Positions 2,379 to 63,884 of a stretch of 64,000 nt of DNA are shown piece after piece. The position numbers and the translations under genes were made by a program. Position 1 is the first letter of the stretch. Each line of letters opens with the position of its first letter. The notes beneath the pieces are model-generated. The model did not search any database, had not been told where the DNA came from, and was given only the letters and a program-made list of their open reading frames with translations. Source of the stretch: Eledone cirrhosa (taxonomy: Eukaryota); assembly GCA_964016885.1 (NCBI GenBank), contig OZ024742.1, positions 240,994,001-241,058,000 of the forward strand. Direction: 5' to 3'.

Positions 2379-5300
2379 AAGGTAAATTTCTTTAAGTCGT
2401 TTGGAAGCCTCGACAATGCAAATGGGTAAATCTCCGGGTAACAAGATCCGGTGGTGGAGAGAGAGATGTAAGTGGGTGTACGTTGAGATGCGTGGCGTGT
2501 AGAAGACTGTAGCGTGTAGACGAATGAAGGAATGAGCGTAAAGGATAAAAATAAAAATAACAACACGAGAAAGAGTTACCTTGGGAGAGATATAATTGTC
2601 CCTATATATTTCGGATTCACATCCATCAACTGGGGTTTTTTCCGGGGGTGGGTGGGGGGGTTGTCTGTCGGAAAGGTGCAAAACGTGTCCTCTTATGGAC
2701 GTGTAATTGGCGGTTGAGATGTTTCAGGATCTGTTTAATACACGTTCAGATCCTGAGACATTTCAACCGCCAATTACACGTCCATAAGCGGACACTCTCA
2801 GAGCGGACACACCGACTGTCAATAACACCCGGCAACTTGCTCCTGAAAATCACTAAAGCAATCGACCAGTGCTACCACTCCAGAGTCCAATACGAAAAAA
2901 AAAACGGATCAAGCGGAAATATAAGTGGATCTTGCGGAAATATAAGTGGATCTTGCGGAAATATAAGTGGATCTCCACAACGAGAACATCGACACTAACG
3001 AACAGACGGACCAGAACCACGTGGAAAACAACAACTTAATAACCGCCACCGCCGCATCCACCAACACCGAGCCACACCTCAACGATGCGACGCACCTGGT
3101 CACCGACCTAACCGGCACTCTCACGAGCGACGAGCTGAAACTCTTACACCTCGGACCCAAGTTCATCGTCTCACAACGACTCGACGACAGACTCAAACTC
3201 AACATCGAGGCCAACTTTTGTCGAGCCGCTTACCAACTTAAATGGGTGACCACCATCAACAGCGCCACAGAAAATAACAGCGCCCACGCAACCCACCCCA
3301 AGTTCCCCACTTACCACTCTGACAACCCACTCCATCCCCCACCACCAACCACGAACTCGACACTAAACTCATCAGGCTAAAACACTCCATCTCGGATATA
3401 CTTCACAAACACACACACACACACGTACAACACATAACCTCAGCAAATCTCAACTCACCACTCTCTCCAACATAACATCGAAGAACCTCATCTACCTCCC
3501 CTCCGACAAGGGAAAAGAATTCTGCGTCATCAGCAGAGAGGCCTACAACACCCTGGCCCTCCAACACCTTGACGATGACAACCTCTACTCCTAGGTCACG
3601 GGAATCACTCCCGCGCAGATAGAAGAGCAGCATCTGCGACCGACGGAAGCTCCCGAAGAAGCTGAGATACACCTCCTCACGAGGAACAGCAGACTACCCG
3701 CCTTCTACCACCTCGTGAAAACACACAAACAGGGACCCGACCTGAAGATCAGGCCCATTGTATCGAGCGTGGAAGGACCACTTTACAAAATTTCATGGCT
3801 CCTAGCCAGAATACTCAAACCCATCTTAGACACCTTGCCGGGACACGTTAACAGCTGCGAGGAGGTGTTGAAGCGCCTGCATCAAATGGATCCCGACACC
3901 AGAAAGAATAACAGATATGCCTTCAGCCTTGATGTAGTCGCTCTCTACACCTCGGTCCCGACACTCCCGGCCGTCAATATACTGATGGAACGCGTCCAAT
4001 CCACCGACCTACACTGCTTCGGGCTCACCACCACTGACATTCACCAACTCCTATCCATCGTCGTCGACAACACCTACTTCGGATTCCTTGACCAAACATA
4101 CCAACATCCCTCGGGACTGCCCATGGGATCAAGCCTGTCGGGTGTGCTAACGATCTCTTACATGGACAGCCTCGAGCGCAAGGCACTCAACGCCTGCCAC
4201 CCCAACGCTGTCGCCTTTTTCTCAAGGTACGTGGACGATATCCTCATCCTCACATCTTCCCAAGACATGGCGAACAGAATCTATGAGACGTTCAACAACA
4301 CGGACGAGAACATTGACTTCAGTGTTGAACACCCCAACGACGACGGGTCACTTGCCCTCCTCGACTTCCGAATCAACATCACGGAACAGGGAGGGATCCA
4401 CTGCAACTTCTACCGAAAGGCAGCCTGCAGGGACCGGTTCGTCCACTACAAGTCCGCCCTCCCTAACAGTGCCAAAAGAGGTTACATTACGAACGAGATC
4501 GCGCGAAACAAAAACAGATGCAGCGATCCCGCGAGTGGTGTCACTCATACCAAGCGATTCCTCGAGGTGCTGGAGACGAACGGATACCCTACCTCGCTCA
4601 CAGACAGAGTAGGAGACACCAGAGACAAGAGACAGAAAGGAACCCAAGGCAAGTGCTTCCTTAAAATGCCACACCTGGGCGAGAATACCACCAACGCTAT
4701 CCGCAAGGCTATACTGAGGGAGGGCCTCAACATCCACCTGGCCCACTGGGCCGCTCCCTGCGAAGATGCCTCTCCAGGAAACCCGGTAAATCAACTGACG
4801 CGTGCTCCCTCAGAGACTGCCCGATGCGCCATGCGAACTGTTGCCTACGCACATACGTCGTGTATAAGATAGAATGTAACAAGTGCAGCCAATACTATAT
4901 AGGTACACAATCCAGCCGTTGCACATCCGGATCAAGGAACACACTAAAACCAGGGCCTCGTCTTTCCGGAAACACATAACCAAATGCGGAAACAAAGACG
5001 GAAGGCCCATTGTCACAATTCTAGCGACAGAAAGAAACGTCGGCACGTTACGTATCAAGGAAGCACTTTGGATCAAACGCATAGGGCCACAATTAAACAA
5101 CCGATCCGAGAGAAGGGAAATGAGGTGGTTGGTTTAAGTTAACAAACGATGTAGCTACACACGCACACACACACACAAGCGATACAGAAACACACGCGCG
5201 CACACACACAGTAGCATTCCACCATACGAACATACTACACTGCCAATACAGAGGAACAAGGCAACAACACACGCATACACACACACACTCAAGCGAGACA

Positions 5301-10053: not shown

Positions 10054-11028
10054 AAAAGCTATTTAGATAAAATTCATCTTAAAAGTCAACATTTATACTA
10101 AATTTTATTAAAGTAAGCATTAATCAAATCATACGTTAAAAATGAATTTTCTTTTTAAAAAGAAGAAAAAAAAAAGCAACATACTTGTCAGTTCAGTTTT
10201 GGTTTTTGTGAATATATATCTTTATAAGAAACATCAGCTGGAAGCTAAAAGAACACAATGATTGACATTTCCAATAAAATGTTGTTGATAAACAAACAAA
10301 CTAAAATATGTTGTACTAATTTTTTGTTTCTTTGTTAAATGATTGCATTTACCTATATGACATTCGTCGGATGAAGCTCTACTCCAAAATGTAGATTTAA
10401 AAAATGATGACTTCCTTATAATTTGACATCAATCAATATTTATTTCAAGGATGGGAGAAAGTGAATTGCTACATTTTTCCTAAACCGATTTATACGATTG
10501 GCGGATTGCCCCTACTAACTTCAGCGACGTGCTTCTCCAGGCTGTACCCATTAATTGTAAGGTTTAAAGCTCAACACTGCTCGTAAAACAAAAGAAATCA
10601 AAATAAAAACACTTGTTAATTTCACAGTGCTCCAGATGATTACAGGGTTAAGCTGCATTTCGGCGTAGAAACTATGTAGAATCATTTGGATTGGATCAGG
10701 AACATAGTAGTGCCCATGCTGGGATTCAAATTATTGACAAACTAACCGATAGGTCATCATTCCTTCCACTCATGCAGCTGTCAACCTACAGGGTGGTCCG
10801 AAAGTCTTGTCACTCCCTACCAAAATGTAATGAGAAACAGTTTATGTTCCCATCCCAGTATCATCCTCTTCGGAGGAGTTGGTTTGCCGAATCTTGCAGT
10901 GAAGTCATGTCGCACATCCTCTATGCTCTTACCAGAATGCACGCGATCATACACTTGCAAGCAGCCTCTCTTCCAAACTGTAGGAGCTCTGAAATAGAAA
11001 ATTATATTATTATTATTATATATTATAC

Positions 11029-11448
11029 AAAGGGCGGTGGATTGGAAGTATCGGTAGAGAGTCGGACGCCAAAGGGCGGTGGATTGGCAGTATCGGTAGA
11101 GAGTCGGACGCCAAAGGGCGGTGGATTGGCAGTATCGGTAGAGAGTCGGACGCCAAAGGGCGGTGGATTGGCAGTATCGGTAGAGGGTCGGACGCCAAAG
11201 GGCGGTGGATTGGAAGTATCGGTAGAGGGTCGGACGCCAAAGGGCGGTGGATTGGCAGTATCGGTAGAGAGTCGGACGCCAAAGGGCGGTGGATTGGCAG
11301 TATCGGTAGAGGGTCGGACGCCAAAGGGCGGTGGATTGGAAGTATCGGTAGAGAGTCGGACGCCAAAGGGCGGTGGATTGGAAGTATCGGTAGAGAGTCG
11401 GACGCCAAAGGGCGGTGGATTGGCAGTATCGGTAGAGAGTCGGACGCC
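11029..11448 (+). repeat. 42-bp minisatellite x10 derived from the SINE 5' head (A-box region)
   Basis: Unit aagggcggtggattgg(a/c)agtatcggtagag(a/g)gtcggacgcca. The last unit runs directly into the SINE body. Confidence 0.95.
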
Positions 11449-11602
11449 ATGCGTTGCAGCAAAGAGTTACGGCCCTTTATGATCTGAGTTCAAATCCCGC
11501 CGAGGTTAACTTTGCCTTTCATCCTTATGGGGTCGATAAAATAAGGTACCAGTAATACACTGGAATAATTGCTGGCCTTGTGCCAAAAGTAGAAACAATT
11601 AT
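11409..11602 (+). mobile_element. tRNA-derived SINE (octopus-type)
   Basis: A-box-like TGGCAGTATCGG, B box GAGTTCAAATCC, body ttgcctttcatcctt.ggggtcgataaaat, tail gctggccttgtgccaaaagtagaaacaatt. More than 8 copies in the window. Confidence 0.85.
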
Positions 11603-20025: not shown

Positions 20026-20140
20026 ACCACAATATCAACAGAAGCCATATAATAAATATATAAGCCAATCTATAAATACCATAAGACTTTCCTGGTGGTT
20101 TAATATAAATGAAACCGTTCTAGTTCTTTATAAGTCATTT

Positions 20141-20165
20141 CTATCTATCTATCTATCTATCTATG

Positions 20166-20240
<75 letters not shown>
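20141..20240. repeat. (TCTA)n microsatellite, 5' flank of the LINE stack
   Basis: About 25 TCTA units. Confidence 0.95.
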
Positions 20241-20473
20241 TAAATCTAGCTGTCGTCTGTTCGATAGCGTAGACGCAATTCACTTCGCGCAGAAGTTTTG
20301 TTCCAATTTATTGCGGAAATTTTGTAAGTTTAATTTTAATTTTGATACTATTGTGTAGCTTGACCCCCCGTCTGAACTGTCAGGCGGTGGGTCAGCTCAT
20401 TTTCGCCCCTCCCAGGGGTGAAAAACCTATTTTAAAAAATTTTGTTGCATAAAATTTCAATCGTCTGGCAGAA

Positions 20474-22378
20474 ATGTTAAACGAAGCTAACGAAAATAGT
20501 GGTGGGGGGACAGCGGTAAGAGTTGTAAGCTCGCACGCTTTAGTCCCCCCTTCCTTCCCAACTAACGTCATAGAGAAGGAAAGAAAAAATAAAATAAAAA
20601 CAGACGAATGTGCGGAGAAAAATGACGAAAACACAAATCTGGAGATTGATTCCAACAACAAAAAAAATTTGAAAGAATTGCATGACAATGTTAATACCAC
20701 AAACAAAGAAACAACAAACACAAAAATAACATTTGAAAACAACATCATAACAGAAAGCAAAACAGACGACAAAGTCAACACCAATAATATCTCATTTGCA
20801 CAAACAACAAAAACATCTTTAACATATATACCTGAAAATATTTCAGATGTGGCACAAAGAATAAAAAAACGCCAAACAATTCATAACTCAAGGGGAAAAT
20901 GGAACCTTATCGGTAAAAATGCCCCAAGAACTCACCAAAGATATTGAAAGTCGGACGGTCGTTTTCCGCACCATCAACAGCATCTAAAAAAAACCTCAAC
21001 AACCAACACAAGCAGAAATTAAAGCAGTACTTAGAGAAGTACTTAATGAAGCCACTTTCATAAGAAGAGACAGGCTGTATGGAAGCCTAGCCATTATTAT
21101 GAAGAACGAATCAGCGGCAAAAAAATATGCTTTGTCGCCGATTCGTTCGACGAATTTTACCTTTTATCCATCTTATATGGGTAAAAGAACTCAACGCATA
21201 TGGCTGGATGCGATGATGCCAGGTATGGACTACTGCTGGCTCATAGCTGGCTTCATCGATCCAGCGAATGACAACGTGATTTCCATTGGGAAAACCACAG
21301 GCAATGCGTTCAGTGGAACAGGTATAGAACTTGTAGTGCAAATGAAGCCTGAACGCATTGCCCAAATACCCGACAGAATCCTATTAGAGGGCCACGGGTA
21401 TATAAACATTAGCGTGGAGGTGAGAAGGCCGTCCTGTCATATCTGTGCAGGCAGAGGGCACCTGAAGGCGGCTTGTCCCCAACTCAACAAGAAGAAAACC
21501 CTGCTACCAACACCAGCTCCACCACCACCACAACAGATAAACAAACAACAAAACTCAGTCCCACCAAACCCGTCCCTCAGTAAAACTACACCACCACCAC
21601 AACATAAACAGTCACAACACATTACCCCAAAACAAAACACAGTCCCACCCAACTCCTCACTCAATAAAACAACACAACCACCGCAGCCACAACACACAAC
21701 ACAGTCTAACATAGTGACATCCATCTCCCCCACAAAGAAAACCAACACGGAAACATTACCAGCAAACATACCTCTTCCCTCCAACACTGAAGATAACCCA
21801 ACGAATTCGGAGGAAGAAACGGCGTCCTTCAGACAGATTAAAAGGAAAAAAAGAAAACATGTGCAAAACACACAAGGCCAAACAGCCCCTACCCAAATGT
21901 CAACACAATCCAACAAAACACAAAACACCCCTCCAGCAACAAACAAAACCAAACCTGCCCCTCCCCTCTTCGAAACACTCACACCATCCGAAAAAAAGAC
22001 ATTACACTATACTTACATCAACAGAAACAATAATAAATTAAATGAACTCATAAACAATAATCCTTCGGTACAAACCGAAGGGGTAAACTTTGTTTTTTCA
22101 GAAAACTACCCACATTTAAAATTAATAAAGATCCCAATGAACCTCTACCAAAAACTAAAAAAGGATTTTAAGGAGGACGTAGGACCACCCTCTGTCACCC
22201 ATAAACCGCGTCCTCCTAAAAAGCTTTCCCCCTCCTCTTCCCCTCCCCCAACACAACTCCAAACACCCCAACCCCACCACACACTGACGACCCCATACCA
22301 CCACAAGACACCCCTTCACCCAACACCCCCGACCCCATGGAAGTCGTGCGACCCGAACCCCGGGAAGTAGAAAGGTAG
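20474..22378 (+). pseudogene. ORF1 (gag-like) of copy A, frameshifted
   Basis: CHICAGRGHLKAAC zinc knuckle, Pro/Thr/Gln-rich linker, RQIKRKKRKH. Homologous to intact ORF1 at 61655-63490. Broken near 20940-21000 and ~22210. Confidence 0.85.
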
Positions 22379-22411
22379 GTCTCTACACTCTCCTTTGGCT
22401 TTGCCGCCCAC

Positions 22412-25400
22412 ATAGATGTGTTAAGAGTAGGATGTTTGAATGCACGTGGCCTGGGCTCAACTTGGAAGCAAGCAAAGCTTCTAAATGACCTCAGGTCACG
22501 TGGTATAAATGTAATGGTTATCTGTGAGACTCGGATCAGCGTCGTGCGGCAGCTGGCCCCTACCTTCGATGACTTTGAGGTGCATGCATCTCTCTGTCAA
22601 CCTGGAGGTGGGGGTAGGGTTGTCGTACTGCTGGAAAAACACCTGGGTCTCGCCGTACAGGTTATTCACTCGGACCCGGAAGGTCGTTTGTTGGTGCTAG
22701 ACGTTGGCAGTAGTAGAGGTGCGGCCTTGAGACTGGTCGCCGTCTACTCCCCTTTCGGAGCAGAACGACCCGACTTCTTCCAGCTTCTGGAGACTTTTCT
22801 GGGAACGTCGCGTTTCCTGCTTCTAGTGGGGGATTGGAATGACATCCTAGATGCACGTTGGAACTATGCAGGAGCATGTCCTAATAGAGGGGGGGGGGGG
22901 TGTAACAGCCTCAAGAGGTTACTCGACCGTTTTAACTTGGTCGATAGATATCGACTAGATTTTCCAACTGTGCCAACCTGGACTTGGACGAACCACAGTG
23001 GTCAATCTAGATCGTACTTAGATAGATTCTTAGTTCGAAGTAAGGATAGGGACATATTAAGCTGTCCAGAAATGCTCACCGTTGGCTATACAGATCACAA
23101 ATTAGTGACCTGCGTAGTCAATCTCGAGAAAACACATAGACAGGGTCCCGGTTACTGGAAACTTAATTTGTCTTTACCGGCAAAAGAGGCTTACAGAAAC
23201 CGGATTAGCAGATTAGTTAAAGAGAGGTTGACGGGTGCAATCGTCAACAACCGATGGTGGGCATCTCTCAAAAGAGAGATTAGAACAGAATCAATAAGTT
23301 ATAGCAAGATGTTAGCTGCCGATAGGAATAGGAACGAGAAAGAATTAACAGGTAAATTAGAAGAGGCAATCAAGAGCGAAGATGTGGCCAGAGTGCTGGC
23401 ATCGAGGATGGCCTTGAGCCAGTTTTTCGATGCAAAGCACGAAGGTTGCGTCATTCGAAGTAAAATACGTGCTCTAGGTAATGAGGAGGCCAAAGCCGTT
23501 GGCTGGGCCCGCCTGACAGAAGCTAAGAGTGGATATCGATCCACCATCCGGTCTTTGCAAGACGAGGATGGACGGGTGATCCGGGAGCCTAAGCAGATGT
23601 GCGAGGCCTTTCAAAGGCACTTTGCCTGATTGTTCGGGGGAGGCGAGGGTCCGGGCGGGGACGTGGATTTCGGTCCATACCTCGACGGCCTGCCGCGTCT
23701 CTCGAGCGAAGAGGCAGAGTCCTGCGAGGGACCAATCTCGGCTGATGAAATCGGGGATGCGCTGAGCCAATGCAGCAGACGCAAATCTCCAGGTCTCGAT
23801 GGTATACCTTACGAAATTTATTTAGCAATGCCGGTCTTCTTCTCCGAACTCCTCGAAGCGGTCTACTGCAATTGGCAGCAGAACGGGAGAATTCCTTGTT
23901 CTGTAGCCAAGGGCGTAGTCTCGCTGGTGAGGTAGGACGAGAACAAGGGGGATAGTATAAATAATTTTCGGCCCATAACTCTGCTAAACACAGAGTTAAA
24001 GATTTTGGCCAAGGTGTTAGCAAAGAGGTTGGCGCTTGTAGGTGGGTGGCCTGTTGGGAGATGCGCAGGTCCATTCACGACAACCTCCACCTCATGCGAT
24101 ACATCATAGAGAGGGTTGGCAACAAACTCGGCTTCGGTGGGGCCCTGATCAACTTGGATCAGTCTAAGGCGTTCGATAGGGTCGACCATGGTGCTAGCGG
24201 CGGCTGGGTTCGGTCCTGTTTTCAGAGGCTGGATCACTGCCTTACATAGCAACCACATCTGTTCTAGGATCAAGGTGAACGGCTACCTTTCGAAGCCGTT
24301 CGAAATCACACGATCCATTCGACAGGGGTGCCCTCTCTCCTCCCTACTGTACGTATTGACTCTCGAGCCTTTACTGAGGAAGTTGGAGTTGTTGCACGGT
24401 ATCCCCCTGGAACCAGGATTGAGCAAAGCGGTGTCGGCCTACGCCGATGACGTAAAAGTAATGGTATCGACCGACTCGGAGATCGAGGCGATCGGTACCT
24501 TACTGGAGGAATACGAAAGGTTGTCAGAAGTGAAACTGAACCGGGAAAAATCCATCGGGCTGCAACTCGGAACGTGGAGAGGCAGACCGATGCCTCCCGA
24601 CGGTGTCGTCCGACTCTGGACGGAGGGCCCGGTGAAGTTGCTTGGGGTCTGGTTTGGACCGGACTTCCAGGTGGAAAAGAACTGGGGCGAGGTTACGAAC
24701 AAGGTGTTTGCACTAACCCAGAAATGGGCCAAGTGTAAGCTGTCCCTAAAAGGTCGGGCGGAGGTGGCGAACATTTACATAGCGTCCGTCACCTACTACC
24801 GCCTGACTGTCGTGCCTTGCCCTAAGGAAACACTCACCACCATGGAACGCATGCTCTTTCAATTTCTTTGGAAGAAGCGCCCTCCTATGGTGAGAAGATC
24901 CATCTGCTGCCAACAACCTTCGAAAGGAGGGCTGGGGATGCCGTGGGTGATGATGCGTAGGCACGCATTAAGGCTACGGCACCTACAGGTATTCCTCACT
25001 GGTCAACCGGTGTGGGCTCCGTTCGTGAAACGAGCCTTTCCGAGACTCGTCTCGCTCACCGAGCTGCAGTCCTGGGTCAAGCAAAGATCCGGAAAACTGG
25101 GCGACTGGCACACTGAGTGTGCCCAGGCGCTCAGGGCTCTCTGGCAAGCGGACCCGGCCATCGGTGGAGAATCCACCTCGTCATTCTATAGAGGGCTGGT
25201 GGCTAGCAGGGGCGATGACACCCTTGAAGAGTCGCTGGACATGGAGGAGGACGAACTGCCCAGCCTGTTCGGTAGGACTTTCGGCCCGGGACCAATGGAC
25301 AACTTCCAGAAGTCACTGGCCTGGCAGTGCTACCGGGAGGCTCTACCCGTTCGAGAAAAGCTCTACAGACACGGGCGCCCGGGCAGGGATCCCTCGAAAA

Positions 25401-25822
25401 AGATTTGCCCTAGATGCGTGCGTCACGAAGAAACCGTTGCGCACGCATTGGTGCACTGTCCGGGCGTGGCTGATCTGCGTGGCTACGCCGAACCACTGTT
25501 GTCGCGGGTGGCGCCGATTCGATTGACCGCCGAGTCCGAGATGACAATCAAACCGCCTCCCCTCTTCACAAAGGAAGCAAAGGCGGTTTTTCTGTGCGTA
25601 ATAGCCATGTTGAAAGAGGTTGTTTGGTGGACACGATTGAAAGGTCTGAGGTCAGGCAACTTCCTCTCTGGCCATAGTCTGGTCTATTTCTTCCGATATT
25701 ACTTCGGAAGAAGGATAAGAATGGAGAGAGAGGTGCTTGGCCACAGGCAGTTTTATGAAAGGTGGGTGATAGTGGCGAGAATGGCTCGTATAAATGAGCC
25801 TTCTCTGTATACCATCCTGTAG
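22412..25822 (+). pseudogene. ORF2 of copy A (APE endonuclease, RT, C-terminal CCHC), with stops and frameshifts
   Basis: CLNARG, GDWN, SYLDRF, TDH, SPGLDG, DQSKAFD, RQGCPLS, YADD, CPRC..EETVAHALVHC. Stops at 23627 and 23933, frameshifts at ~24050-24190. Confidence 0.92.
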
Positions 25823-26039
25823 GTAAAGAAGTGAAGGAGAGGGGAGCACCTTCTCCATGTGCTCCCTGGGCAAAGGATTGCACACTTTTTCGGGTGTGTG
25901 TGCAACCCCCATCACGTCCCCTCCCTTTTGAGGTTGTTTTTGATTATTTTCATTTTATACCCTTTTTACTCGGTTTTATGTAAACTCCCCCTTTGTATTT
26001 GTCCCTTCTTTTTATACCTTTATGGTAAATAAAGAAATA

Positions 26040-26126
<87 letters not shown>

Positions 26127-26144
26127 CTATATATCTATCTATCT

Positions 26145-26597
26145 ATGGCGAAAGAGGTTGTATGGTGGACAAGTTTGAAAGGGCTGAGGTCAGACACCTT
26201 TCTCTCCGGCCAACAACTGATTCTTTTTTTCAAATACCACTTTGGAAGAAGAATCAGGATGGAGAGAGAGGTGCTGTACCCCAGCAAGTTTTATGAAAGG
26301 TGGGTGAAAGTGGCGAGAATGGCCCGAGTGAATGGGCCTTCTCTCTATATCAGCCTGTAGGTTGAGGGAAAGGAGGAGGAGAGGAAAGGAGTACAAACTC
26401 TTCGTACTCCTGGAGATGAGGGTTGCACATTTTTTCGGGGGTATGTGTTACCCATATGAACTGCCTCCCCCTATTGGGGAAAATCGACTAATTTTTTAAA
26501 TTGCATTTGTGATATTTTACACGTTTTTATTGTATGTAACCCCCCCCCCTTTGTATTTGCCCCCTTCTTTTGTGCCCCTGTGGCTAATAAAGGAATA
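26145..26597 (+). mobile_element. Tx1-clade LINE copy B, 5'-truncated (~450 bp)
   Basis: ORF2 C-terminus MAKEVVWWT...GPSLYISL* plus 3'UTR and AATAAA, between (TCTA)n tracts. Confidence 0.9.
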
Positions 26598-26630
26598 TAT
26601 CTATCTATCTACCTATCTATCTATCTATCT

Positions 26631-29600
26631 AAAAAAATTCCCCCACCCCCTCCCCAAAGACCCACACAACTACAAACACCCCAACCACACAACACACTGA
26701 TGCCCCCACACTTCCACAAACCACCACCCCACCCAACAACCCATCCACCACCCTCATAGAAATTGTGCAGCCCGATATTCGGGACGCAGAGAGGTAAGTG
26801 CTTTTCTCTTCACCACCAACATGGCTATGCTGAGAGTAGGTTGTCTAAATGCGCGTGGTCTGGGCTCAACTTGGAAGCAAGCAATGCTTCTAAATGACCC
26901 CAGGTCACAACGTATAGATGTGATGGTTATTTGCGAGGCCCGGATCAGCAACGTGCGACAGCTGGCCCCCACCTTTGATGACTTTGAGATGCACGCATCT
27001 CTCTGTCAGCCCGGAGGTGGGGGTGGGGTTGTCGTTCTGCTGCAAAACATCTGGGTCTCGCAACACAGACGGTACATTTGGACCCGGAGGGTCGACTAGT
27101 GGTTCTGGAACTTGGCAGTGGTGAAGGCGGAGCGTTTAGGCTGGTAGCCGTCTACGGCCCTTTCGGGTCAACGCGGCCGGACTTCTTCCATCGTCTGGAG
27201 ACTTTTATAGGGACGTCCCGCTCCTTGCTATTAGTGGGGGACAGTAATGGTATCTTAGATGCACGTTGGGACTACGTAGGGGCCTGTCCCGATAGAGAGG
27301 GGTGTAACAGTCTCAAAGGGTTAATCGGCCGATTTGACCTGGCCGATAAATATCGACTAGATTTTCCGACTGCGCCAACCTAGACTAGATAGGTTCTTAG
27401 TTAGAAATAAGGATAAGGACTTTTTAAGTTGTCCAAAAATGCTCATGGTTGGCTATTAAGACCACAAGTTAGTGACCTGCATGGTCTACCTTGACAGAAC
27501 GCATAGACAGGTACCGGTTACTGGAAGCTCAACTTATCCTTACCGGCAAATAAAGCTTACAGGGACCGGATTAGCACTTTAGTTAAGGAGCGGTTGACGA
27601 GCGCCATCGTCAACAGCAGGTGGTAGGGATCTCTCAAAAGAGAGATTAGAGTAGTCTCTATAGAATTTAGTAAAGTGTTAGCCTCAAATAGAAATAGGAA
27701 GGAAAGGGAGTTGGTAGATAGTGTAGGAGAGGCAATTAGAAGCGGCGACGTAGCCAGAGTGCTAGCGTCGAGAACGGCCCTGGGCCAGTTCTTCGACGCG
27801 AAACATGAAGGCTGCATCGTCCGAAGCAAAATACGTGCTCTGGGAAACGAGGGGACCAAAGCTGTTAGCTGGGCCCGCGTGACAGAAGCCAAAAGAGGGA
27901 GCAGATCCACTATCCGGTCTTTGCGAGACCAGGAAGGACGGGTAATACTTGAACCTAAGCAGATGTGCGAGGCTTTTCAAAAGCACTTTGCCAGATTGTT
28001 CGGAAGGAACGGGGAGCCGGTTGGGGAAGTGGACTACGGTCCATACCTCGACGCCCTACGGCGTCTCTCGGACAAGGAGGCGGAGTCCTGCGAGGAGCCG
28101 ATTTCAGCCGCTGAGATAGAGTGCTGAGCCAATGCGGCCAATGCAAATCCCCGGGTCTCGATGGTCTTCCATACGAACTATATCTAGCTATGCAGGACTT
28201 GTTCCCCGATTTTCTCGAGGTGATCTACTGCAACTGGCAACAGAACGGGAGAATTCTCTGTGCTGTGACCAAGGGCGTAGTCACGCTAGTGAGGAAGGAC
28301 GAGAACAAGGGGGACGATATAAATAATTTCAGGCCCATAACTTTGCTAAATACAGAGTTACAGATGTTGGCCAAGGTGCTAGCAAAGAGGTTGGCGCTTG
28401 TCGTGGGCAACCTGGTGGGGGATGCGCAGACATGTGGTATCCCGTCTAGGTCCATCCACGACAACCTTCACCTCATGCGATACATCATAGAGAGGGTTGG
28501 GAACGAACCCGGCTTTGGTGGGGCCCTGATCAACTTGGATCAATCTAAAGCGCTCGATAGGGTCGACCATGGTTACCTCGATGCGGTGCTAGCGGCGGCA
28601 GGCTTCGGACCCGTTTTCAGGGGCTGGGTCACTGCCATGCACAGCAGCCGCATCTGCTCTAGGGTCAAGGTGAACGGACCTCTCGGAGCCGTTCGAAATC
28701 GCGCGGTCCATCCGACAACGGTGCCCTCTCTCCCCCCTTTTGTATGTAACGACTCTAGAGCCACTGCTGCGGAAGTTGGAGTTGTACAGGGCATCCCGTT
28801 GGAACCGGGATTGCGGAAAGCGGTGTCGGCCTACGCCGATGACGTAACAGTAATGGTGTCGACGACCTCGGCAGTCGGGGCGATCGGCACCTTACTGGAG
28901 GAGTACAGTGGCTAAGCTTAACCGGGACAAGTCGATCGGTCTGCAACTCGGCACGTGGAGGGGCAAATCGATGCCCTCCGATGGCGTCGTCGGGCGCTGG
29001 ACGGAGGGCCCGGTGAAGTTGCTCGGGGTCTGGTTCGGAACAGATCTCCAGGTGGAGATGAACTGGGGTGAGGTAACGAACAGGGTGTTTGCACTGACCC
29101 AGAAGTGGGCCGAGTGCAAATTGTCTCTGAAAGGTCGGGCGGAGGTGGCGAACACTTATATAGCGTCCGTCATCTACTACCGCCTGACCGTTGTGCCTTG
29201 CCCAAGGGAAAGGCTCGCCAAAATGGAGCGCGCACTCTTCCAATTCCTTTGGAAGAATCGGGCTCCTATGGTGAGGAGATCGATCTGCTGTCAACACCCT
29301 TCGAAAGGAGGGCTGGGGATGCCGTGTCTGATGATGCGTAAACACACATTAAGGCTACGGCACCTCCTGGTATTCCTCACCGGTCAACCGGTGTGGGCCC
29401 TGTTTGTGAGGCGAGCCTTTCCCAGACTCGTCTCGCTCACCGAGCTGCAATCTTGGGTCAAGCAAAGACCGAGAAAACTGGGCGCCTGGAACACCGAGTG
29501 TGCTCAGGCGCTCACGGCTCTCTGTCAGGCGGACCCGGCTGTCAGTGGAGAATCCACCTCGTCATTCTATAGAGGGCTGGTGGTTACCAGGTGCGACGAC

Positions 29601-30453
29601 GCCCTCGGAGAAGCCCTAGGCATGGAGGAAAACGGACTGGCCAACCTGTTCGGTAGGACATTCAGCCCGGCACCTATGGATAACTTCCAGAGGTCCCAGG
29701 CCTGGCAGTGCTACCGAGGGGCTCTGCCCGTTCGAGAAAGACTCTACAGACACGGGCGCCCGGGTAGGGACCCCTCGAAGAAGATCTCTCCCAGATGCGG
29801 GTGCGACGAGGAACCCGTTGCGCACACATTGGTACACTGCTCGGGCATTGCCTATCTGTTGGGCTATGTCGAACGACTGGTGTCACGGGTGGGGCTGATC
29901 CGGTTGACCACCGAGTCTATTGTAACGATCAAGCTGCCTCCCCTCTTCAAAAACGAAGGAGAGGCGGGGTTTCTGTGCGTAATAGCCATGGCGAAAGAGG
30001 TTGTATGGTGGACGCGTCTGAAAGGACTGAGGTCAGACACCTTTCTCTCTGGCCAACAACTGGTCCGTTTCTTCCGATATCATTTCGGAGAGAGAGGTGC
30101 TGCACCCTAGCTGTTTTTATGAAAGATGGGTGAAAGTGGCCAGAATGGCCCGTGTGAATGGGCCTTCACTCTACATCAGACTGTAGTTGAGAAAGATGAA
30201 AGATCAAGGGAGCACCCTCTCTCTGTGCTACTGAGGAGAAGGGTTGCACACTTTTTCGGGGGTGTGTGCGACCCCCCAAGGCGCCTCCTCCCTATTGAGG
30301 ATTTTGTTATTCAATTTATTTTTCTTATATTTTATATCTTATATTTTTATATTTTGTTATTGCCTCCTCCTTATTGAGGACGCCTTTTTATGTAAACGCC
30401 CCCCATTGTATATGTCCCACTCTTTGACGACCTGGTGGTAAATAAAAAGAAAG

Positions 30454-30454
<1 letters not shown>
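26631..30454 (+). mobile_element. Tx1-clade LINE copy C, 5'-truncated within the ORF1 end, decayed ORF2 (26821-30186)
   Basis: ORF2 starts MAMLRVGCLNARG and has many stops, frameshifts and small deletions. 3'UTR with AATAAA, (TCTA)n flanks. Confidence 0.92.
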
Positions 30455-30497
<43 letters not shown>

Positions 30498-30875
30498 ATT
30501 CTTTTTTTCAAATACCACTTTGGAAGAAGAGTCAGGATGGAGAGAGAGGTGCTGTACCCCAGCAAGTTTTATGAAAGGTGGGTGAAAGTGGCGAGAATGG
30601 CCCGAGTGAATGGGCCTTCTCTCTATATCAGCCTGTAGGTTGAGGAAAAGGAGGAGGAGAGGAAAGGAGTACAAGCTCTTCGTACTCCTGGAGATGAGGG
30701 TTGCACATTTTTTTTCGGGGGTATGTGTTACCCATATAAACTGTCTCCCTCTATTGGGGAAAATCGACTAACTTTTAAATTCCATCTGTGATAACATTTT
30801 ACACGTTTTTATTGTATGTAAACTTCCCCCTTTGTATTTGTCCCCTTCTTTTGTGCCCCTGTGGCTAATAAAGAA

Positions 30876-30876
<1 letters not shown>
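30498..30876 (+). mobile_element. Tx1-clade LINE copy D, 5'-truncated, same subfamily as B
   Basis: Nearly identical to 26220-26597, with (TCTA)n flanks. Confidence 0.9.
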
Positions 30877-30912
<36 letters not shown>

Positions 30913-30920
<8 letters not shown>

Positions 30921-35078: not shown

Positions 35079-36098
35079 CATTTTTCATTATACTTAATTG
35101 CAACAACACAGCTCGCCATTTTGATTCATATATATATATATATATATATATAAATATAGTTATATTTGGGGAGGGTCATATTTGTGTAATATTGCCAGAA
35201 TTAATAACAGAACACACTCACTGTTTGGTTGGTTTTCGCTTTTCGCTTCTGTGTCTTTTATATCGGTAATCTAATTTATTCGGTCTTCAATGTTGCCATT
35301 GACTGACCAACGGTCAAAAATAATACTGATACAATATAGACACAAACACATATATAGTTTATCAATGTTCTTTCGTTGCACATCTGCAACATCGTCAGTG
35401 GTGCTATTGTTTCCTCCCGTTGCATTGTATTTTCTACGCCATCTTTATTTAGTCTGTTTATATATTTATTTATTTGTTTATTTTATTTTGTCTTCTTTGC
35501 GCATGCGTTTGCGTGTGTGTATAGTGTTTTGTTTGATGTGTGTTCGTGATTGGGTGACTGTGTATTGGTTAATGTATTCTATCTTTACTAGTGTGTGTTT
35601 ATATGTGTTTGTTGTTATTGTGCTTGTGTATGTATTTATTTATTTATTTATCTATTTATTTATTTATACTTCTCTTAGGTCAGTGTTGTTTGTTTGGGTG
35701 TTGTTATTCCATTCATTCTTTCTGTTTAGCCTTGGCCTTCTAAGTTCTATTTCACTGGCCTCTATGATTTGCCTATCTGCTGGGTCATTTCTATGTTTAG
35801 ATATTATTCTAATTTCTATGTTGTCTATGTTACCGTCGTGTTGTCTGGCATGTTCGTATAGTACTGAACCGTTTTTTCGTCCTTTTAGTTCCCCCCAGTG
35901 TTGGTCTATCCTTTCACCTATGCTACGAACTGTCTCGCCTATGTATGTTGTTGTCATGTTTTTGCAAGTACCCTCTGTACATCTTATGCTATAGACTACG
36001 TTTCTAGTTTTACAGTTTATCCGGGGGTTTACCTTACATATGATACATTTCCTATTAGTAAAGTGGGTTCTCTTAAAAGGGTAGGTTTTGCTGATCAG

Positions 36099-36578
36099 AT
36101 TAAGGTGGTAGAAAAGCCAGGAACCACCATAAAATCCCTGATCTGCAAAACCTACCCTTTTAAGAAAACCCACTGTACTAATAGGAAATGTATCATATGT
36201 AAGGTAAACCCCCGTATAAACTGTAAAACTAGAAACGTAGTCTATAGCATAAGATGTACAGAAGGTACTTGCAGAAACATGACAACAACATACATAGGCG
36301 AGACAGCTCGTAGCATAGGTGAAAGGATAGACCAACACTGGGGGGAACTAAAAGGACGAAAAAACGGTTCAGTACTATACGAACATGCCAGACAACAACA
36401 CGACGGTAACATAGACAACATAGAAATTAGAATAATATCTAAACATAGAAATGACCCAGCAGATAGGCAAATCATAGAGGCCAGTGAAATAGAACTTAGA
36501 AGGCCAAGGCTAAACAGAAAGAATGAATGGAATAACAACAACACCCAAACAAACAACACTGACCTAAGAGAAGTATAA
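36099..36578 (+). pseudogene. PLE linker + GIY-YIG endonuclease C-terminal fragment (mirror copy 35664-36098 on - strand)
   Basis: IKVVEKPGTTIKSLI..C...CIIC......CKTRNVVYSIRC....C.....YIGETARSIGERIDQH...RQIIEASEI....P.LNRKNEW. Confidence 0.88.
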
Positions 36579-36841
36579 ATAAATAAATAGATAAATAAAT
36601 AAATAAATACATACACAAGCACAATAACAACAAACACATATAAACACACACTAGTAAAGATAGAATACATTAACCAATACACAGTCACCCAATCACGAAC
36701 ACACATCAAACAAAACACTATACACACACGCAAACGCATGCGCAAAGAAGACAAAATAAAATAAACAAATAAATAAATATATAAACAGACTAAATAAAGA
36801 TGGCGTAGAAAATACAATGCAACGGGAGGAAACAATAGCAC

Positions 36842-36880
36842 CACTGACGATGTTGCAGATGTGCAACGAAAGAACTTTGA
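36842..36880 (+). ncRNA. Hammerhead-like motif in the pLTR (mirror at ~35362-35400)
   Basis: CUGACGA, stem II gttgca-gatg-tgcaac, GAAA. Stems I and III are weak. Confidence 0.55.
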
Positions 36881-37213
36881 TAAACTATATATATGTGTTT
36901 GTGTCTATATTGTATCTGTATTATTTTTGACCGTTGGTCAGTCAATGGCAACATTGAGGACCGAGTAAGTTAGATTACCGATATAAAAGACACAGAAGCG
37001 AGAAGCAAAAACCAACCAAACAGTGAGTGTGTTCTGTTATTAATTCTGGCAATATTACACAAATATGACCCTCCCCAAGTATAACTATATTTGTTTCGAC
37101 ACACGATTTCATATAAAAAACCTCGCAAAACTATATATATATATATATATATATAAAGAAGTCGGTGGAGAAACAGAAGGACATGTAAACAGACATACGT
37201 GTATATAGATGTA

Positions 37214-41654: not shown

Positions 41655-41957
41655 ACACACACACACATATATATATATGCATTCTAAAGACTATATTTCA
41701 TCGTCCGGATCAAATTCCCGTCCTGATTATTATTGTTGACTATCTAAGAATCTCAAATGTGCCCACATTAGAGAACTGTTCACATATTTTGGTTGGTACT
41801 ACTCCAACTCGCACAAATAACTAAAAGGCCATTTAATTAATTGCAGAAAACCCCTACAACTACTATTGTTTATGCTCTCTCATTGTCTATTGTCATATAG
41901 TCGAAAGAAGTAGTGTCCGTTCAGTTTACTCGATTCAATCTCACAGTCCTTTCGACT

Positions 41958-43232
41958 AATATAGCCGCGCACTCCATTAAGTTCACTTGACCCAATGTCT
42001 CAGTTCTTTCAACTAATATAGCTGCACACTCCATTAAGTTCACTCGACCCAATGTCTCAGTTCTTTCAACAAATATAGCTGCACACTCCATTAGGTTCAC
42101 TCGACCCAATGTCTCAGTTCTTTCAACAAATATAGCTGCACACTCCATTAGGTTCACTCGACCCAATGTCTCAGTTCTTTCAACAAATATAGCTGCACTC
42201 CATTAGGTTCACTCGACCCAATGTCTCAGTTCTTTCAACAAATATAGCTGCACACTTCATTAGGTTCACTCGACCCAATGTCTCAGTTCTTTCAACAAAT
42301 ATAGCTGCACACTTCATTAGGTTCACTCGACCCAATGTCTCAGTTCTTTCAACAAATATAGCTGCACACTTCATTAGGTTCACTCGACCCAATGTCTCAG
42401 TTCTTTCAACAAATATAGCTGCACTCCATTAGGTTCACTCGACCCAATGTCTCAGTTCTTTCAACAAATATAGCTGCACACTTCATTAGGTTCACTCGAC
42501 CCAATGTCTCAGTTCTTTCAACAAATATAGCTGCACACTTCATTAGGTTCACTCGACCCAATGTCTCAGTTTTTTAAACAAATATAGCTGCACACTCCAT
42601 TAGGTTCACTCGACCCAATGTCTCAGTTCTTTCAACAAATATAGCTGCACACTTCATTAGGTTCACTCGACCCAATGTCTCAGTTCTTTCAACAAATATA
42701 GCTGCACACTCCATTAGGTTCACTCGACCCAATGTCTCAGTTCTTTCAACAAATATAGCTGCACACTTCATTAGGTTCACTCGACCCAATGTCTCAGTTC
42801 TTTCAACAAATATAGCTGCACACTCCATTAGGTTCACTCGACCCAATGTCTCAGTTCTTTCAACAAATATAGCTGCACACTTCATTAGGTTCACTCGACC
42901 CAATGTCTCAGTTCTTTCAACAAATATAGCTGCACACTCCATTAGGTTCACTCGACCCAATGTCTCAGTTCTTTCAACAAATATAGCTGCACACTCCATT
43001 AGGTTCACTCGACCCAATGTCTCAGTTTTTTCAACAAATATAGCTGCACACTCCATTAGGTTCACTCGACCCAATGTCTCAGTTCTTTCAACAAATATAG
43101 CTGCACACTCCATTAGGTTCACTCGACCCAATGTCTCAGTTCTTTCAACAAATATAGCTGCACACTTCATTAGGTTCACTCGACCCAATGTCTCAGTTCT
43201 TTCAACAAATATAGCTGCACCATTAAGTTCAG
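41958..43232. repeat. 57-bp minisatellite, about 22 copies
   Basis: Unit aatatagctgcacact(c/t)cattaggttcactcgacccaatgtctcagttctttcaaca, two 55-bp variants, degenerate edge units, no spacers. Confidence 0.95.
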
Positions 43233-44662
43233 TTGATCCAATCTCTCAGTTCTTTTGCCGTTCCTCTAGTGTCTCACCTATCAGATTTCGCAAAATACTT
43301 TTATTCAATCATCCTTCTTCTGAATTATTAACGTTTTTGTTCATTCTCTGCTAATATTTTCCCAACAGAAATTGAGAATATTGACAATAATGTCTGATAA
43401 TTACTATCCAAATCTTTCTCCTACTTCAGATGGATATGAAATACCAGAATCATTTTTGATCACAAAGCCAAAGGCGAATGAACGACGTGGAACGGACTTA
43501 TTTCCAGGTAGGAGAGCTGACTCAAATGTTCCGTCTGCTAAAGGCTTCTTAGGGTGTATGAAATCGCGCGGAAGTATCACCACACAGTTCCTACTTACCA
43601 AACTTAACTCACAAGGCTTTGGTCACTTTGATTAAACTTAACACTTGATAAAAGTTCCGCGGCGTAAGATCATGTTTGAAACATTGTAGTTGTGAAGCAA
43701 TCTTCTTAATCACACAACCGTATTTGTATATTACGGCGCAAGATAATATCTGAAACCATGTAGTTATAAAGATATCTTAACTACACAACCATACTTATAC
43801 ACTACGAAACAGTTTTGAATTTTTTTATAAACGAAGCAACAGTTTGAAACGCACATACATGATGTACTAATCAGATGGAATATTTTGAAAAAGACTTTGG
43901 AAATGAAAGGTGCTAATCTTTTTAAACAACCAGTTTCGGTAGCTAACTTATACGAAATTTGAAAAAAGTGAAACGTCTACATTAAATGGAAAACAAATTC
44001 TTGTCACTAGGGAAATTTAAAAAAAGTCTATTTTTGTTCAAGAAAATTCGACGTCAAGAATCACATTTGAGGCAAAAAGTAGTACCTTAATATGTTATTC
44101 TCTTTCACGCTGTTACAATATTATCAACTGAAAATATGATTTCACCAGGGCTTCAATAAATTTCTGATAGTTATATTTTCAGCAAATATTATGTCTGAAT
44201 ATTAATTCACTTTGTTTTGAGTTATTATTCATACTAGACATTAGTCATTTTACATTTCATGGGTTGTTCAGCGTACATCTAGCTTATCTGCTTCGATATT
44301 TTCTCTATGATAATGATATGTGACCATTTAGATTTCACGGACAATTCATATATCTTGAAGAATCAATGGTAAAGAAGCTACCTTCCTCTGAAGCGGCAGG
44401 TGTCTATGAAAATGAGTATTTCTGTTCGTTAATAATCAATTATGTTTTACAATATATGTTCTTCTGTAGTTTGAAATTCCCCTATAACAACTTTTTCTGC
44501 ATGTGTTTATTCTTATAATAACTTTAATAGATACAGACACATACGTATATCATATATGCACATATACATACGTAAATGCATATATGTGTATATACGCACA
44601 TATACTTTCACTCGTACATACAGGCATTCATAAATACACATGCACAAACACGTATGTACGTG

Positions 44663-44663
<1 letters not shown>

Positions 44664-44761
<98 letters not shown>
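44664..44761. repeat. (TCTA)n microsatellite without a LINE insertion (empty target)
   Basis: About 24 uninterrupted units. Confidence 0.95.
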
Positions 44762-57710: not shown

Positions 57711-58220
57711 ATGTTGGAAGATCGTTAATTTAAAAAGGAGCATTTTAAAAGAATGGTTTTGTTCCACAGGTAGTTTTGGGCAGGTTCATATCAAAATAGT
57801 TAATTGATATCGATACACAAAATTCTTATCCGTCCGTGATGACCGGTTATTGATTGAAACTGTTTAAGAAGTTGATTGATAATAACTCTTTCAATCACAA
57901 GAAAGAAAGATAGATAGATAGAGAGATAGATAGAGAGATAGATAGAGAGATAGATAGAGAGATAGAGAGATAGATAGATAGATAGATAAATTTCTATTTA
58001 TTTGCCACGAGGGCACAAAAGAAGGGGACATTTACACAGTGGGGGAGTTTACATAAATCGAGTAAAGAAAAAAGGAATAACAATAATAATATAACAATAA
58101 AAAGTCCTCAAAAGGGAGGGGGCGTGTTGGGGATTGCACATACCCCCGAAAAGTGTGCAACTCTTTTCGCGGGGGAAGCCCAGAGAGGAGGCGCTCCCCC
58201 TTTCCTCTTCACTTCTTCAC

Positions 58221-61200
58221 CTACAGAACAATGTAGAGAGAAGGCCCATTTACACGGGCCTTTCTCGCTTCTTTCACCCACCTTTCATAAAACTGTCTGG
58301 GACCAAGCACTTCTCTCTCCATCCTGATTCTTCTTCCGAAGTGGTATCGGAAGAAGTAAACCAGGTGATGGCCGGAGAGAAAGTCACCCGACCTCAGACC
58401 TTTCAGGCGCGTCCACCACACAACCTCTTTCATCATGGCTATTACGCACAGAAAGACCGCCTCTGCTTCATTTCTGAAGGGAGGAGGCGGCTTGATGTTC
58501 ACCACAGACTCGGCGGTTAATCGAATCGGCGCCACACGCGACAGCAGTCGTTCGACGTAGCCCCACAGATCGGCAACGCCCGGGCAGTGTACCAGTGCAT
58601 GCGCAACGGTTTCCTCGTCGCGCACGCATCTGGGACAGATCTTTTTCGCGGGATCCCTGCCCGGGCGCCCGTGTCTGTAGAGCTTTTCTCGAACGGGCAG
58701 AGCCCCCCGGTAACACTGCCAGGCTAGGGACCTCTGGAAGTTGTCCATGGGTCCCGGGCCGAAAGTTCTACCGAACAGGCTGGCCAGTTCGTCCTCCTCC
58801 ATGCCTAGCGACTCTCCAAGGGTGTCGTCGCCCCTGCTAGCCACCAACCCTCTATAGAATGTCGAGGTGGATTCTCCACTGACAGTCGGGTCCGCTTGCC
58901 AGATAGCCGTGAGCGCCTGGGCACACTCAGTGTGCCAGTTGCCCAGTTTTCTCGGTCTTTGCTTCACCCAGGATTGCAGTTCGGTGAGCGAGACGAGCTG
59001 TGGGAAGGCTCGCCTCACAAACGGGGCCCACACCGGCTGACCGTTGAGGAATACCTGTAGATGCCGTAGCCTCAATGCGTGCCTACGCACCAACAGCCAC
59101 GGCATACCCAGCCCTCCTTTCGAAGGGTGCTGGCAGCAGATGGATCTCCTCACCATGGGAGGCTGCTTCTTCCAGAGGAACTGGAAGAGCATGCGTTCCA
59201 TGATGGTGAGCTTTTCCTTGGGGCAAGGCACGACGGTCAGGCGGTAGTAGATGACGGACGCTATGTAAGCGTTCGTCACCTCCGCCCGACCTTTCAGTGA
59301 TAGTTTGCACTTGGCCCACTTCTGGGTCAGCGCAAATACCCTGCTCGTCACCTCGCCCCAATTCTTCTCCACCTGGAGGTCCGGTCCGAACCAGACCCCG
59401 AGCAGCTTCACCGGGCCCTCCGTCCACCGCCCGACGACACCGTCTAACGGCATCGGTTTGCCCCTCCACGTTCCGAGTTGCAAACCGACTGACTTGTCCT
59501 GGTTCAGCTTAGCCCCCGTCAGCCTTTCGTATTCCTCCAGTAGGGTGGCGATCGCCCCGATTTCCGAGGCGTCCGCCACCATTACTGTTACGTCGTCGGC
59601 ATAGGCCGAGACCGCTTTGTGCAATCCCGGTTCCAGGGGTATGCCCCGCAGCAACTCCAACTTCCGCAGCAGTGGCTCGAGAGTCAATACGTACAGAAGG
59701 GAGGAGAGGGGGCACCCCTGTCTGATGGATCGGGTGATTTGAAACGGCTCCGAGAGGTAGCCGTTTACTTTAATCCTAGAGTAGATGTTGCCACTGTGCA
59801 TGGCAGAAATCCAGCCCCTGAAAACGGGTCCGAAGCCCGCCGCCGCTAGCACCGCATCCAGGTAACCATGGTCGACCCTATCGAACGCCTTAGATTGATC
59901 CAAGTTGATCAGGGCCCCACCAAAGCCGGGTTCGTAGCCAACCCTCTCTATGATGTATCGCATGAGGTGGAGGTTGTCGTGAATGGACCTGGACGGGATA
60001 GCGCATGTCTGCGCGTCTCCCACCAAACCACCCACCACAAGCGCCAACCTCTTCGCCAACACCTTGGCCAAAATCTGTAACTCTGCATTCAGCAGAGTTA
60101 TGGGCCTAAAGTTACTTAAGTCGTCCCCCTTGCTCTCGTCCTTCCTCACTAGCGTGACCACGCCCTTGGTCACAGAACAGGGAATTCTCCCGTTCTGTTG
60201 CCAGTTGCAATAGACAGCCTCGAGGAGTTCGGAGAACAAGACCGGCATAGCTAAATAAAGTTCGTATGGTAGACCATCGAGACCCGGGGATTTGCGTCTG
60301 CTGCATTGGCTGAGCGCTTCCCCGATTTCAGTGGCTGTGATTGGCCCTTCGCAGCACTCCGCTTCGCCGCTCGAAAGACGCGGTAGACCGTCGAGGTATG
60401 GACCGAAGTCCACATCCCCGTCCGGCCCCCCGCCACCTCCGAACAGTCGAGCAAAGTGCCTTTGAAAGGTCTCGCACATTCGCTCAGGTTCAAGGATCAC
60501 CCGTCCATCCTGGTCTCGCAAAGACCGAATGGTGGATTTAATCCCACTCTTGGCTTCTGTCACGCGGGCCCAGCTAACAGCTTTGGTCCCCACGTTTCCT
60601 AAAGCACGTATTTTACTTCGGACAACGCAGCCTTCGTGCTTCGCGTCAAAGAACTGGCTCAATGCCGTTCTCGTCGCTAACACTCTGGCTACGTCTCCGC
60701 TCCTAATCGCCTCTTCTAGTTTATCTGTTAACTCCCTTTCCCTCCTATTTCTATTCGCCGCTAGTTCCTTACTGTAACCTATCGAACTTACTCTAATCTC
60801 TCTCTTTAGAGATATCCACCACCTACTGTTGACGATCGCTCCCGTCAACCGCATCTTAACTAAGCTACTAATCCGGTTTCTGTAATCTTTCTTTGTCGGT
60901 AAGGACAAGTTCATCTTCCAGTAACCGGGACCCTGTCTATGCGTTCTATCAAGGTTGACCACGCAGGTCACTAATTTGTGATCTGAATAGCCAACCATGA
61001 TCAGTTCTGGACAACTAAATACGTCCCTATCCTTACTCCTAACCAAAAACCTATCTAGGTACGATCTAGATTGTCCACTGCGGTTTGCCCAGGTCCAGGT
61101 TGGCGCAGTTGGACAATCTAGTCGAAATCTATCGACCAGGTCGAATCGATCGAGTAACCCCTTGAGGCTGCTACACCCCCCTCTATCGGGACATGCCCCT

Positions 61201-61649: not shown

Positions 61650-61654
61650 TTGAT

Positions 61655-63630: not shown

Positions 63631-63884
63631 AATAGTAAGGGTAAATCCCGATGGAATAGCGGAGCCGATGCGAAGCGTGTCTTACTCTATCAAGATAGAG
63701 AGATAGATAGAGAGATAGATAGAGAGATAGAGAGATAGATAGAGAGATAGAGAGATAGATAGATAGATAGAGAGAGAGAGAGTATTCGTGTTACAATGAC
63801 CACCATCAATATGAATTGATAAATATATACATAATTACGTATAAATCATATCTATATATGTATGTATATATATATATGTATATA

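Follow-up and report, generated by a model that had tools for sequence, protein, structure and literature searches.

Five LINE copies in TCTA-based repeats

We analysed 64,000 nt of the Eledone cirrhosa genome (positions 240,994,001-241,058,000 of OZ024742.1; hereafter the window), a stretch of microsatellite-rich animal DNA with a GC content of 38% that was selected after the fact. It holds five copies, A to E, of one family of LINEs (long interspersed nuclear elements); each copy lies in a tetranucleotide repeat that reads TCTA on the sense strand of the element and TAGA on the other (GATA-type). BLAST with the elements and with the proteins of copy E found no others in the window.

Copies A to D are arranged head to tail on the plus strand. 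Copy A (20241-26037) is full-length, with both open reading frames (ORFs) broken, ORF2 by three frameshifts and two stops. Copy B (26145-26595) is 5'-truncated, and C (26629/32-30452), the most decayed, is truncated near the end of ORF1 and carries eight frameshifts and three stops in ORF2. Copy D (30498-30876), also 5'-truncated, belongs to the subfamily of B; the two are cut at different points and are therefore separate insertions. Copy E (63692-57991, minus strand) stands alone, is full length with both frames open, and ends in AATAAA-TA-GAAA without poly(A). By BLAST, identities are 81% for A/E, 82% for C/E, 79% for A/C, 94.5% for B/D and 70-79% for B or D against the rest, so the array holds three subfamilies and E represents a fourth. 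Since mismatches are concentrated at third codon positions, these four subfamilies, 72-82% identical, appear to have diverged while active. The original prediction, made from the letters of the window, placed all five copies within 1-3 bases of these positions and recognized at least three diverged subfamilies in the array. It counted five insertions; the independent loci number two, the A-D array and E.

The tract 5' of A (20140-20240, plus strand) comprises 25 units, one of them a TGTA variant. No element 3' end precedes it, and sensitive BLAST with four 3' untranslated region ends gave no match upstream. The remaining plus-strand tracts read TATA (TCTA)16 TTTA (TCTA)5 TATA (TCTA)3 T between A and B (26038-26146), TATA (TCTA)3 CCTA (TCTA)4 between B and C (26596-26631), GTTA (TCTA)10 T between C and D (30453-30497), and (TCTA)11 3' of D (30877-30920). 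On the minus strand, E is preceded by a TCTA/TCTC compound repeat of 13 TCTA and 8 TCTC units (63693-63779) and followed by TTTA (TCTA)4 and a further compound stretch of 14 TCTA and 5 TCTC units (57900-57990); its interrupted tract adjoins a short TC run. All ten flanks are TCTA-based on the sense strand, as had been proposed, with the correction that those of E are compound rather than pure (TCTA)n.

Parsed in four-base units, the 3' ends of all five copies read AATAAA-N(0-2)-GRAA-NNTA-(TCTA)n, in one register and without poly(A). The pattern AATAAA-N(0-2)-GRAA-NN-TATCTATC matched the window five times, once per copy, and never in 100 shuffles; because it was written from these copies, the count documents a shared register and is not an independent test. 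The first unit after GRAA varies (TATA, TATA, GTTA, TCTA and TTTA). At the 5' junctions the repeat reaches the edge of the element, with a two-base microhomology (AT) at B, probably a three-base one (CTA) at C, as judged from the sequence of A, and nothing clear at D. TATA(TCTA)3 stands on either side of B, the last 16 bases before this copy matching the start of its 3' flank. This is a possible target-site duplication marked by a variant unit, or may be chance, because the 3' flank of A too begins with TATA. The idea that A and E have a 5' motif in common found no support, and we rejected a candidate conserved stem-loop at the 3' end (-2.1 kcal/mol).

The repeat at the insertion sites

Outside the elements the window contains 47,844 bases of host DNA, of which TA tracts make up 6.4% (56 loci), CA tracts 2.3% (31 loci) and GATA-type tracts 1.0-1.3%. 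None of the 56 TA loci and none of the 31 CA loci is occupied, which agrees with the earlier remark that the family is missing from these commoner tracts. Leaving out the elements, the window has three long GATA tracts, of which two are occupied; the third, a (TCTA)24 tract at 44663-44760 (plus strand), is a potential target without any element match by BLAST. That both independent loci fall in GATA tracts has a probability of ~1.6e-4 under uniform insertion, or 4.8e-3 for any shared repeat class. For comparison, the criterion for a target-specific Tx1 family in PMC4494074 is one sequence type in >20% of the flanks of that family; the sample here is five of five copies from two loci within 64 kb.

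It had been argued that the repeat must be the target and not just a tail, since even the truncated copies have it at their 5' junctions. The conclusion is probably right but the argument is weak. B, C and D each begin at a tract that is also the 3' tract of the copy before, and such sharing is also predicted if elements with repeat tails insert into one another, so only the 5' tracts of A and E are independent. At the 5' ends of A and E the repeat extends for 87-101 bases, and no element end lies before it. Locus E adds a mark of its own, as TCTC accounts for 8 of 21 units in its 5' flank and 5 of 19 in its 3' flank, whereas the other six GATA tracts contain none in 107 units (descriptive counts, because units within one tract are not independent). 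Because TCTC units sit in both flanks of E and in no other tract, its 3' flank is sequence of the host locus and not a uniform tail. If TCTA is abbreviated to A and TCTC to C, the two flanks read AAAACACAACACAACAACA and AAAACACAACAACAACAAA, offset by one 8-base unit. The offset would be explained either by a short duplication (lengths of up to 19 bases fit) within a patterned repeat or by an unusually long duplication; on either reading the repeat was there before E.

The order of insertion in the array bears on the same question, for a tail-only model requires the stack to begin, at its 5' end, with the oldest copy. By private second/third-position changes (70/128 versus 47/153, Fisher p 0.011) and ORF2 frameshifts (8 versus 3), C looks older than A. 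This is suggestive of C having inserted before A, in which case A likely inserted 5' of the oldest member, into repeat that was not the tail of any element.

We therefore propose, with a probability of roughly 0.55, that the family targets pre-existing (TCTA/TAGA)n microsatellites through a nick in the TAGA strand and priming by an RNA that ends in UCUA. The broader claim of a genome-wide preference for GATA repeats, whether led by the endonuclease or arising from RNA pairing alone, we hold with good confidence.

Encoded proteins and clade placement

ORF1 of E (61655-63490, minus strand) runs for 611 codons from an ATG and encodes two predicted RRM-like domains and one CX2CX4HX4C knuckle, followed by a low-complexity T/P-rich region. 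The ORF2 frame (58221-61721, minus strand; 1166 codons from stop to stop) encodes an APE endonuclease, a reverse transcriptase (RT) and a zf-RVT-like zinc finger. Its putative start is ATA in E and A and ATG in C; because of this ATA, E is best described as open-framed with function unproven. In E the ATA overlaps the ORF1 stop, which hints at coupled, non-AUG initiation. Shortly upstream of the ORF2 start, E (61655-61700, minus strand), A (22370-22420), C (26795-26830) and a sister lineage described below (locus L086, 1515-1560) carry a splice-donor-like motif, GGTA(A/G)GT. Fusion of ORF1 and ORF2 by splicing from a GT(A/G)AGT-like motif to the next AG was considered and rejected, since the frames would not fuse in E.

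Pfam matches to ORF2 of E were Exo_endo_phos, RVT_1 and, below its cut-off, zf-RVT, and the best match of the ORF2 profile among solved proteins was human L1 ORF2p (E-value 4e-107; R2, 5e-39). With an N-terminal APE domain, an RT closest to that of L1 and a C-terminal zinc finger, the element falls by its domains within the L1 group (L1 + Tx1). ORF1 had no Pfam match, hence no Transposase_22, and a search for ORF1 homologs gave no matches. Its knuckle is invariant across 18 aligned ORF1s. A structural model of ORF1 (pLDDT 85) weakly matched tandem-RRM proteins (E-value 5e-5, TM 0.3-0.4), so that the RRMs are predicted, and its neighbours in the Atlas were CCHC and ZCCHC3-RBD clusters. Mammalian-type L1 elements combine a Transposase_22 ORF1 with a poly(A) tail; neither is present here, poly(A) being absent at all five 3' ends.

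We took clade definitions from the accounts in PMC5203782, PMC5753468 and PMC3747384, the first of which characterizes the Tx1 clade by a type I ORF1 (RRM plus CCHC knuckle) in place of Transposase_22. The predicted ORF1 is of this type. The original assignment to the Tx1 clade accordingly fits the domain layout and is putative. An RT tree was built from 165 regions, none of them from a protein named as a Tx1 family member; 181 proteins of at least 700 residues were screened for it and 164 kept. E grouped with a protein from Argonauta and two further proteins (support 1.0), and their sister was a lineage that forms stacks. Among named proteins, the closest come from Argonauta hians (61-69% identity over parts) and a cuttlefish (37-52%).

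A sister lineage that stacks without a microsatellite

The sister lineage is represented among cuttlefish proteins as well, and its DNA context comes from G001, a bacterial species-representative genome record that holds host-animal contigs, a contamination of the record. On these contigs we found 68 ORF2 matches of the lineage (loci L081-L119, L125 and L136-L155). Identity to E is 48-53% in the RT and 35-52% over ORF2, and 41% for the closest relatives with DNA context. The copies, near-identical and often intact, form head-to-tail stacks with a period of 6.4-6.9 kb, a LINE-derived tandem array worth a study of its own.

The sister lineage shares with the Eledone family its ORF1 layout, an end shortly after AATAAA without poly(A), and head-to-tail stacking. 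It differs in having no microsatellite at any of 62 ends, in its near-identical full-length stacks, and in an endonuclease hairpin loop of 11-14 residues in six of seven proteins. A run of eight A occurred within 30 bases of none of these 62 distinct 3' ends, drawn from 15 contigs. Instead, the 10-20 bases that follow AATAAA are particular to each sister subfamily, in five cases common to different contigs, and truncated copies join at the same spot. The outer flanks of one two-copy stack match at 16 of 18 bases. At locus L098 (925-946 and 13734-13752), the host DNA that precedes the first copy of a stack agrees, at 18 of 19 bases, with the short 3' end of copies on another contig, which would be expected of a lineage returning to one sequence.

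Since the sister lineage ends without poly(A) and stacks without a microsatellite, both habits are traits of the lineage and not effects of GATA. The original prediction had tied head-to-tail stacking to the GATA target, and a relative of 41% identity that stacks without any microsatellite speaks against this. The sister 3' ends do count in favour of a priming step that uses the last bases of the RNA. Rfam gave no match on five sister-lineage loci, so no RNA-gene target is shown for them.

In a metagenome scan the top segment among the best 80 of 488 loci reached 43% identity, and none was of the Eledone lineage. Viral contigs gave no match by protein and one match by pattern, without similarity to the element; (TCTA)3 or (TAGA)3 was absent from the 135 loci scanned; and 48 further genomes around G001 gave no match. 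We inspected 14 TATC tracts, spread over 13 stretches of the G001 and G002 records, and one more in L154; none lies beside the Eledone family. The G002 record (L135, L176-L187; 10.4 Mb) carries numerous TA, CA and TATC microsatellites along with LINE fragments, so it too likely holds eukaryotic contigs. A search of sequencing runs found part of E in 15 of the 19 runs listed; the four containing at least half of its words come from a single study and may be its source, two other organisms stand at 0.47 and 0.33, and none of this was used as evidence; no RNA run was among the E-containing matches listed.

Endonuclease, proposed mechanism and alternatives

The E endonuclease retains N14, E43, D145, N147, D206 and H231, which we take to correspond to the catalytic residues in L1 numbering. 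Its structural model (pLDDT 94) matches L1 endonuclease structures best (E-value 1e-19, TM 0.78), with 2v0r, an L1 scaffold carrying the Tx1L loop, at the top in a near-tie. The hairpin loop that is described as probing the target in L1, anchored at T192 and S202 (PMC1950540), has nine residues in A and E, as in three close relatives. This length marks the branch without implying specificity.

Under the proposed targeting of pre-existing repeats, the endonuclease would nick the TAGA strand. The RNA would be cut some 10-25 bases past AAUAAA, inside the repeat, and would carry at its end a few UCUA units transcribed from the flank of the source copy itself. Pairing of this end with the nicked-strand primer would fix the register and bypass poly(A). 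A cut in the top strand ~15-19 bases away would produce a duplication that the repeat conceals, and truncated 5' ends would join through 0-3 bases of microhomology. Each insertion would leave target on both sides, so one array could gather several subfamilies over time. Similar steps appear elsewhere: RNA-target annealing is proposed for SART1 (PMC7265360), and double insertion via duplicated targets has been described (10.1101/158386).

Several results weigh against this proposal. The independent loci are only two, both inside one 64-kb window, and equal polarity of five out of five copies has by itself p = 0.06, which is not significant. Private amino-acid changes (41 in C, 31 in A; p 0.29) and disablements (11 in C, 5 in A; p 0.21) do not separate the ages of A and C. 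Nick position and duplication length are unreadable inside a repeat. The nine-residue loop is that of the promiscuous human L1, unlike the 11 residues of Tx1L, and a TAGA preference of the enzyme is a prediction. Finally, a TATC repeat lies within 30 bases of none of the 62 sister-lineage 3' ends, so GATA specificity is not lineage-wide and is at most a property of a narrower branch.

The strongest alternative keeps the target and changes its cause. A promiscuous endonuclease might nick widely, with only the nicks in (TAGA)n able to pair with a (UCUA)n RNA end, so that the target is inherited through the RNA and not through the protein. The missing poly(A) and fixed register in all five copies would follow from this, as would the differing short 3' ends to which the sister subfamilies return, truncated copies included, and the L1-like loop length also fits. 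Yet one target has been kept by four subfamilies that are 72-82% identical, and with a drifting RNA end this would not be assured; the copies vary in the first unit that follows GRAA; and the Tx1L endonuclease is reported to be sequence-specific by itself (PMC1950540). The data of the window cannot separate endonuclease-led from RNA-pairing-only specificity, and we regard the latter as the less likely of the two, though a serious contender.

An extension of the RNA-pairing idea would cover both branches. The lineage may have given up poly(A) priming, its RNA ending in a short copy of the parent's landing site and priming where the DNA matches, so that the RNA end passes the target on; the sister branch would stack at private sites, and the Eledone family would have captured the GATA repeat, a genome-wide, self-renewing target. 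We offer this as speculation, with doubts. If true, the family would drive the turnover of GATA microsatellites, and exchanging 10-20 bases of its RNA could redirect it to another target.

It is improbable that (TCTA)n is mainly a tail, with copies entering earlier tails or a local hot spot, no genome-wide GATA specificity, and two loci that are a lucky draw. Such a model gains from the three of five 5' tracts that double as the 3' tract of a neighbour, from stacking without microsatellites in the sister lineage, from the choice of the window after the fact and from the long GATA tract that stands empty. Against it stand the long 5' tracts of A and E, the TCTC pattern on both sides of E, and the placement of both loci in a class that makes up 1.3% of the host DNA (p 1.6e-4 to 4.8e-3). 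An assembly artefact that joined separate loci through TCTA tracts is very improbable: repeat tracts are common misjoin points, but these are just 34-109 bases long, a misjoin cannot make junctions of repeat and truncated element with microhomology, and E lies apart, between compound flanks that match each other.

Relation to known target-specific LINEs

Microsatellite-specific Tx1 families are established, as the original prediction stated. Kibi inserts in (TC)n and Koshi in (TTC)n of teleost fish, and eight crocodilian families of the Tx1-1_Crp group occupy the tetranucleotide repeats (TTCC)n or (TTTC)n, according to the text of PMC4494074. Microsatellite targets listed for LINEs in PMC3812793 are ACAY, AC, TC, TTC and TAA; (TG)n is added in PMC4640811, and a telomere-specific Tx1 is cited in PMC10088271. 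Like the Kibi, Koshi and crocodilian families, the one described here is an APE-type LINE of the L1/Tx1 group that resides in a microsatellite, with four-base units as in the crocodilian group. Its target, TCTA/TAGA, is not pure pyrimidine and its host is a cephalopod; the comparison is by description, not by sequence. The Eledone family works like Kibi- and Koshi-type elements and, by target, is none of them.

Tx1L of Xenopus laevis has the same endonuclease fold (best structural match 2v0r) and is described as targeting a site in a DNA transposon, with an 11-residue loop, in contrast to nine residues and a simple repeat here (PMC1950540). Insertion into short tandem repeats is also reported for SART1 and TRAS1 (telomeric repeats), Waldo (ACAY), Mino (AC) and Tx1-1_ACar (telomeric) (PMC7265360, PMC3812793, PMC10088271). 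SART1 shares the fixed strand and phase of insertion but joins its target through a poly(A) tail, which the Eledone copies lack (PMC7265360). SART1, TRAS1, Waldo and Mino are assigned to another clade, R1, and the target here is an interstitial GATA repeat.

The mostly open-access literature yielded no GATA-specific LINE, in keeping with the original prediction, which named none; Repbase and Dfam were outside this search, and the family may be catalogued there. Figure 3 and the supplements of PMC4494074 may list further microsatellite targets. Octopus vulgaris has 80 L1-Tx1 families, 13 of them recently active, and these may include the Eledone family or one of its relatives; the survey mentions no target preference in the portions of text and supplement at hand (PMC13282606).

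GATA is likely a new target for the known microsatellite-targeting habit of Tx1-type LINEs. If so, a common and much-used marker repeat joins the short list of LINE-targeted microsatellites, the habit reaches molluscs, and GATA markers in such genomes may conceal kilobase insertions. The mechanism of microsatellite targeting is called 'not well understood' in PMC3812793. Open-frame copy E and the non-microsatellite sister lineage make a pair suited to a direct test of the shares of endonuclease and RNA-DNA pairing.

Other features of the window

A near-perfect 1.8-kb palindrome, its arms 96% identical, lies at 35244-37043; the fragment encodes what we take to be a GIY-YIG, Penelope-type C-terminus. 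A separate RT fragment (3595-5140; Pfam RVT_1), Penelope-like by appearance, is flanked by CA and not TCTA repeats. Two minisatellites, with units 96-97% identical, consist of 10 units of 42 bases (11028-11449) and 23.5 units of 57 bases (41924-43255).

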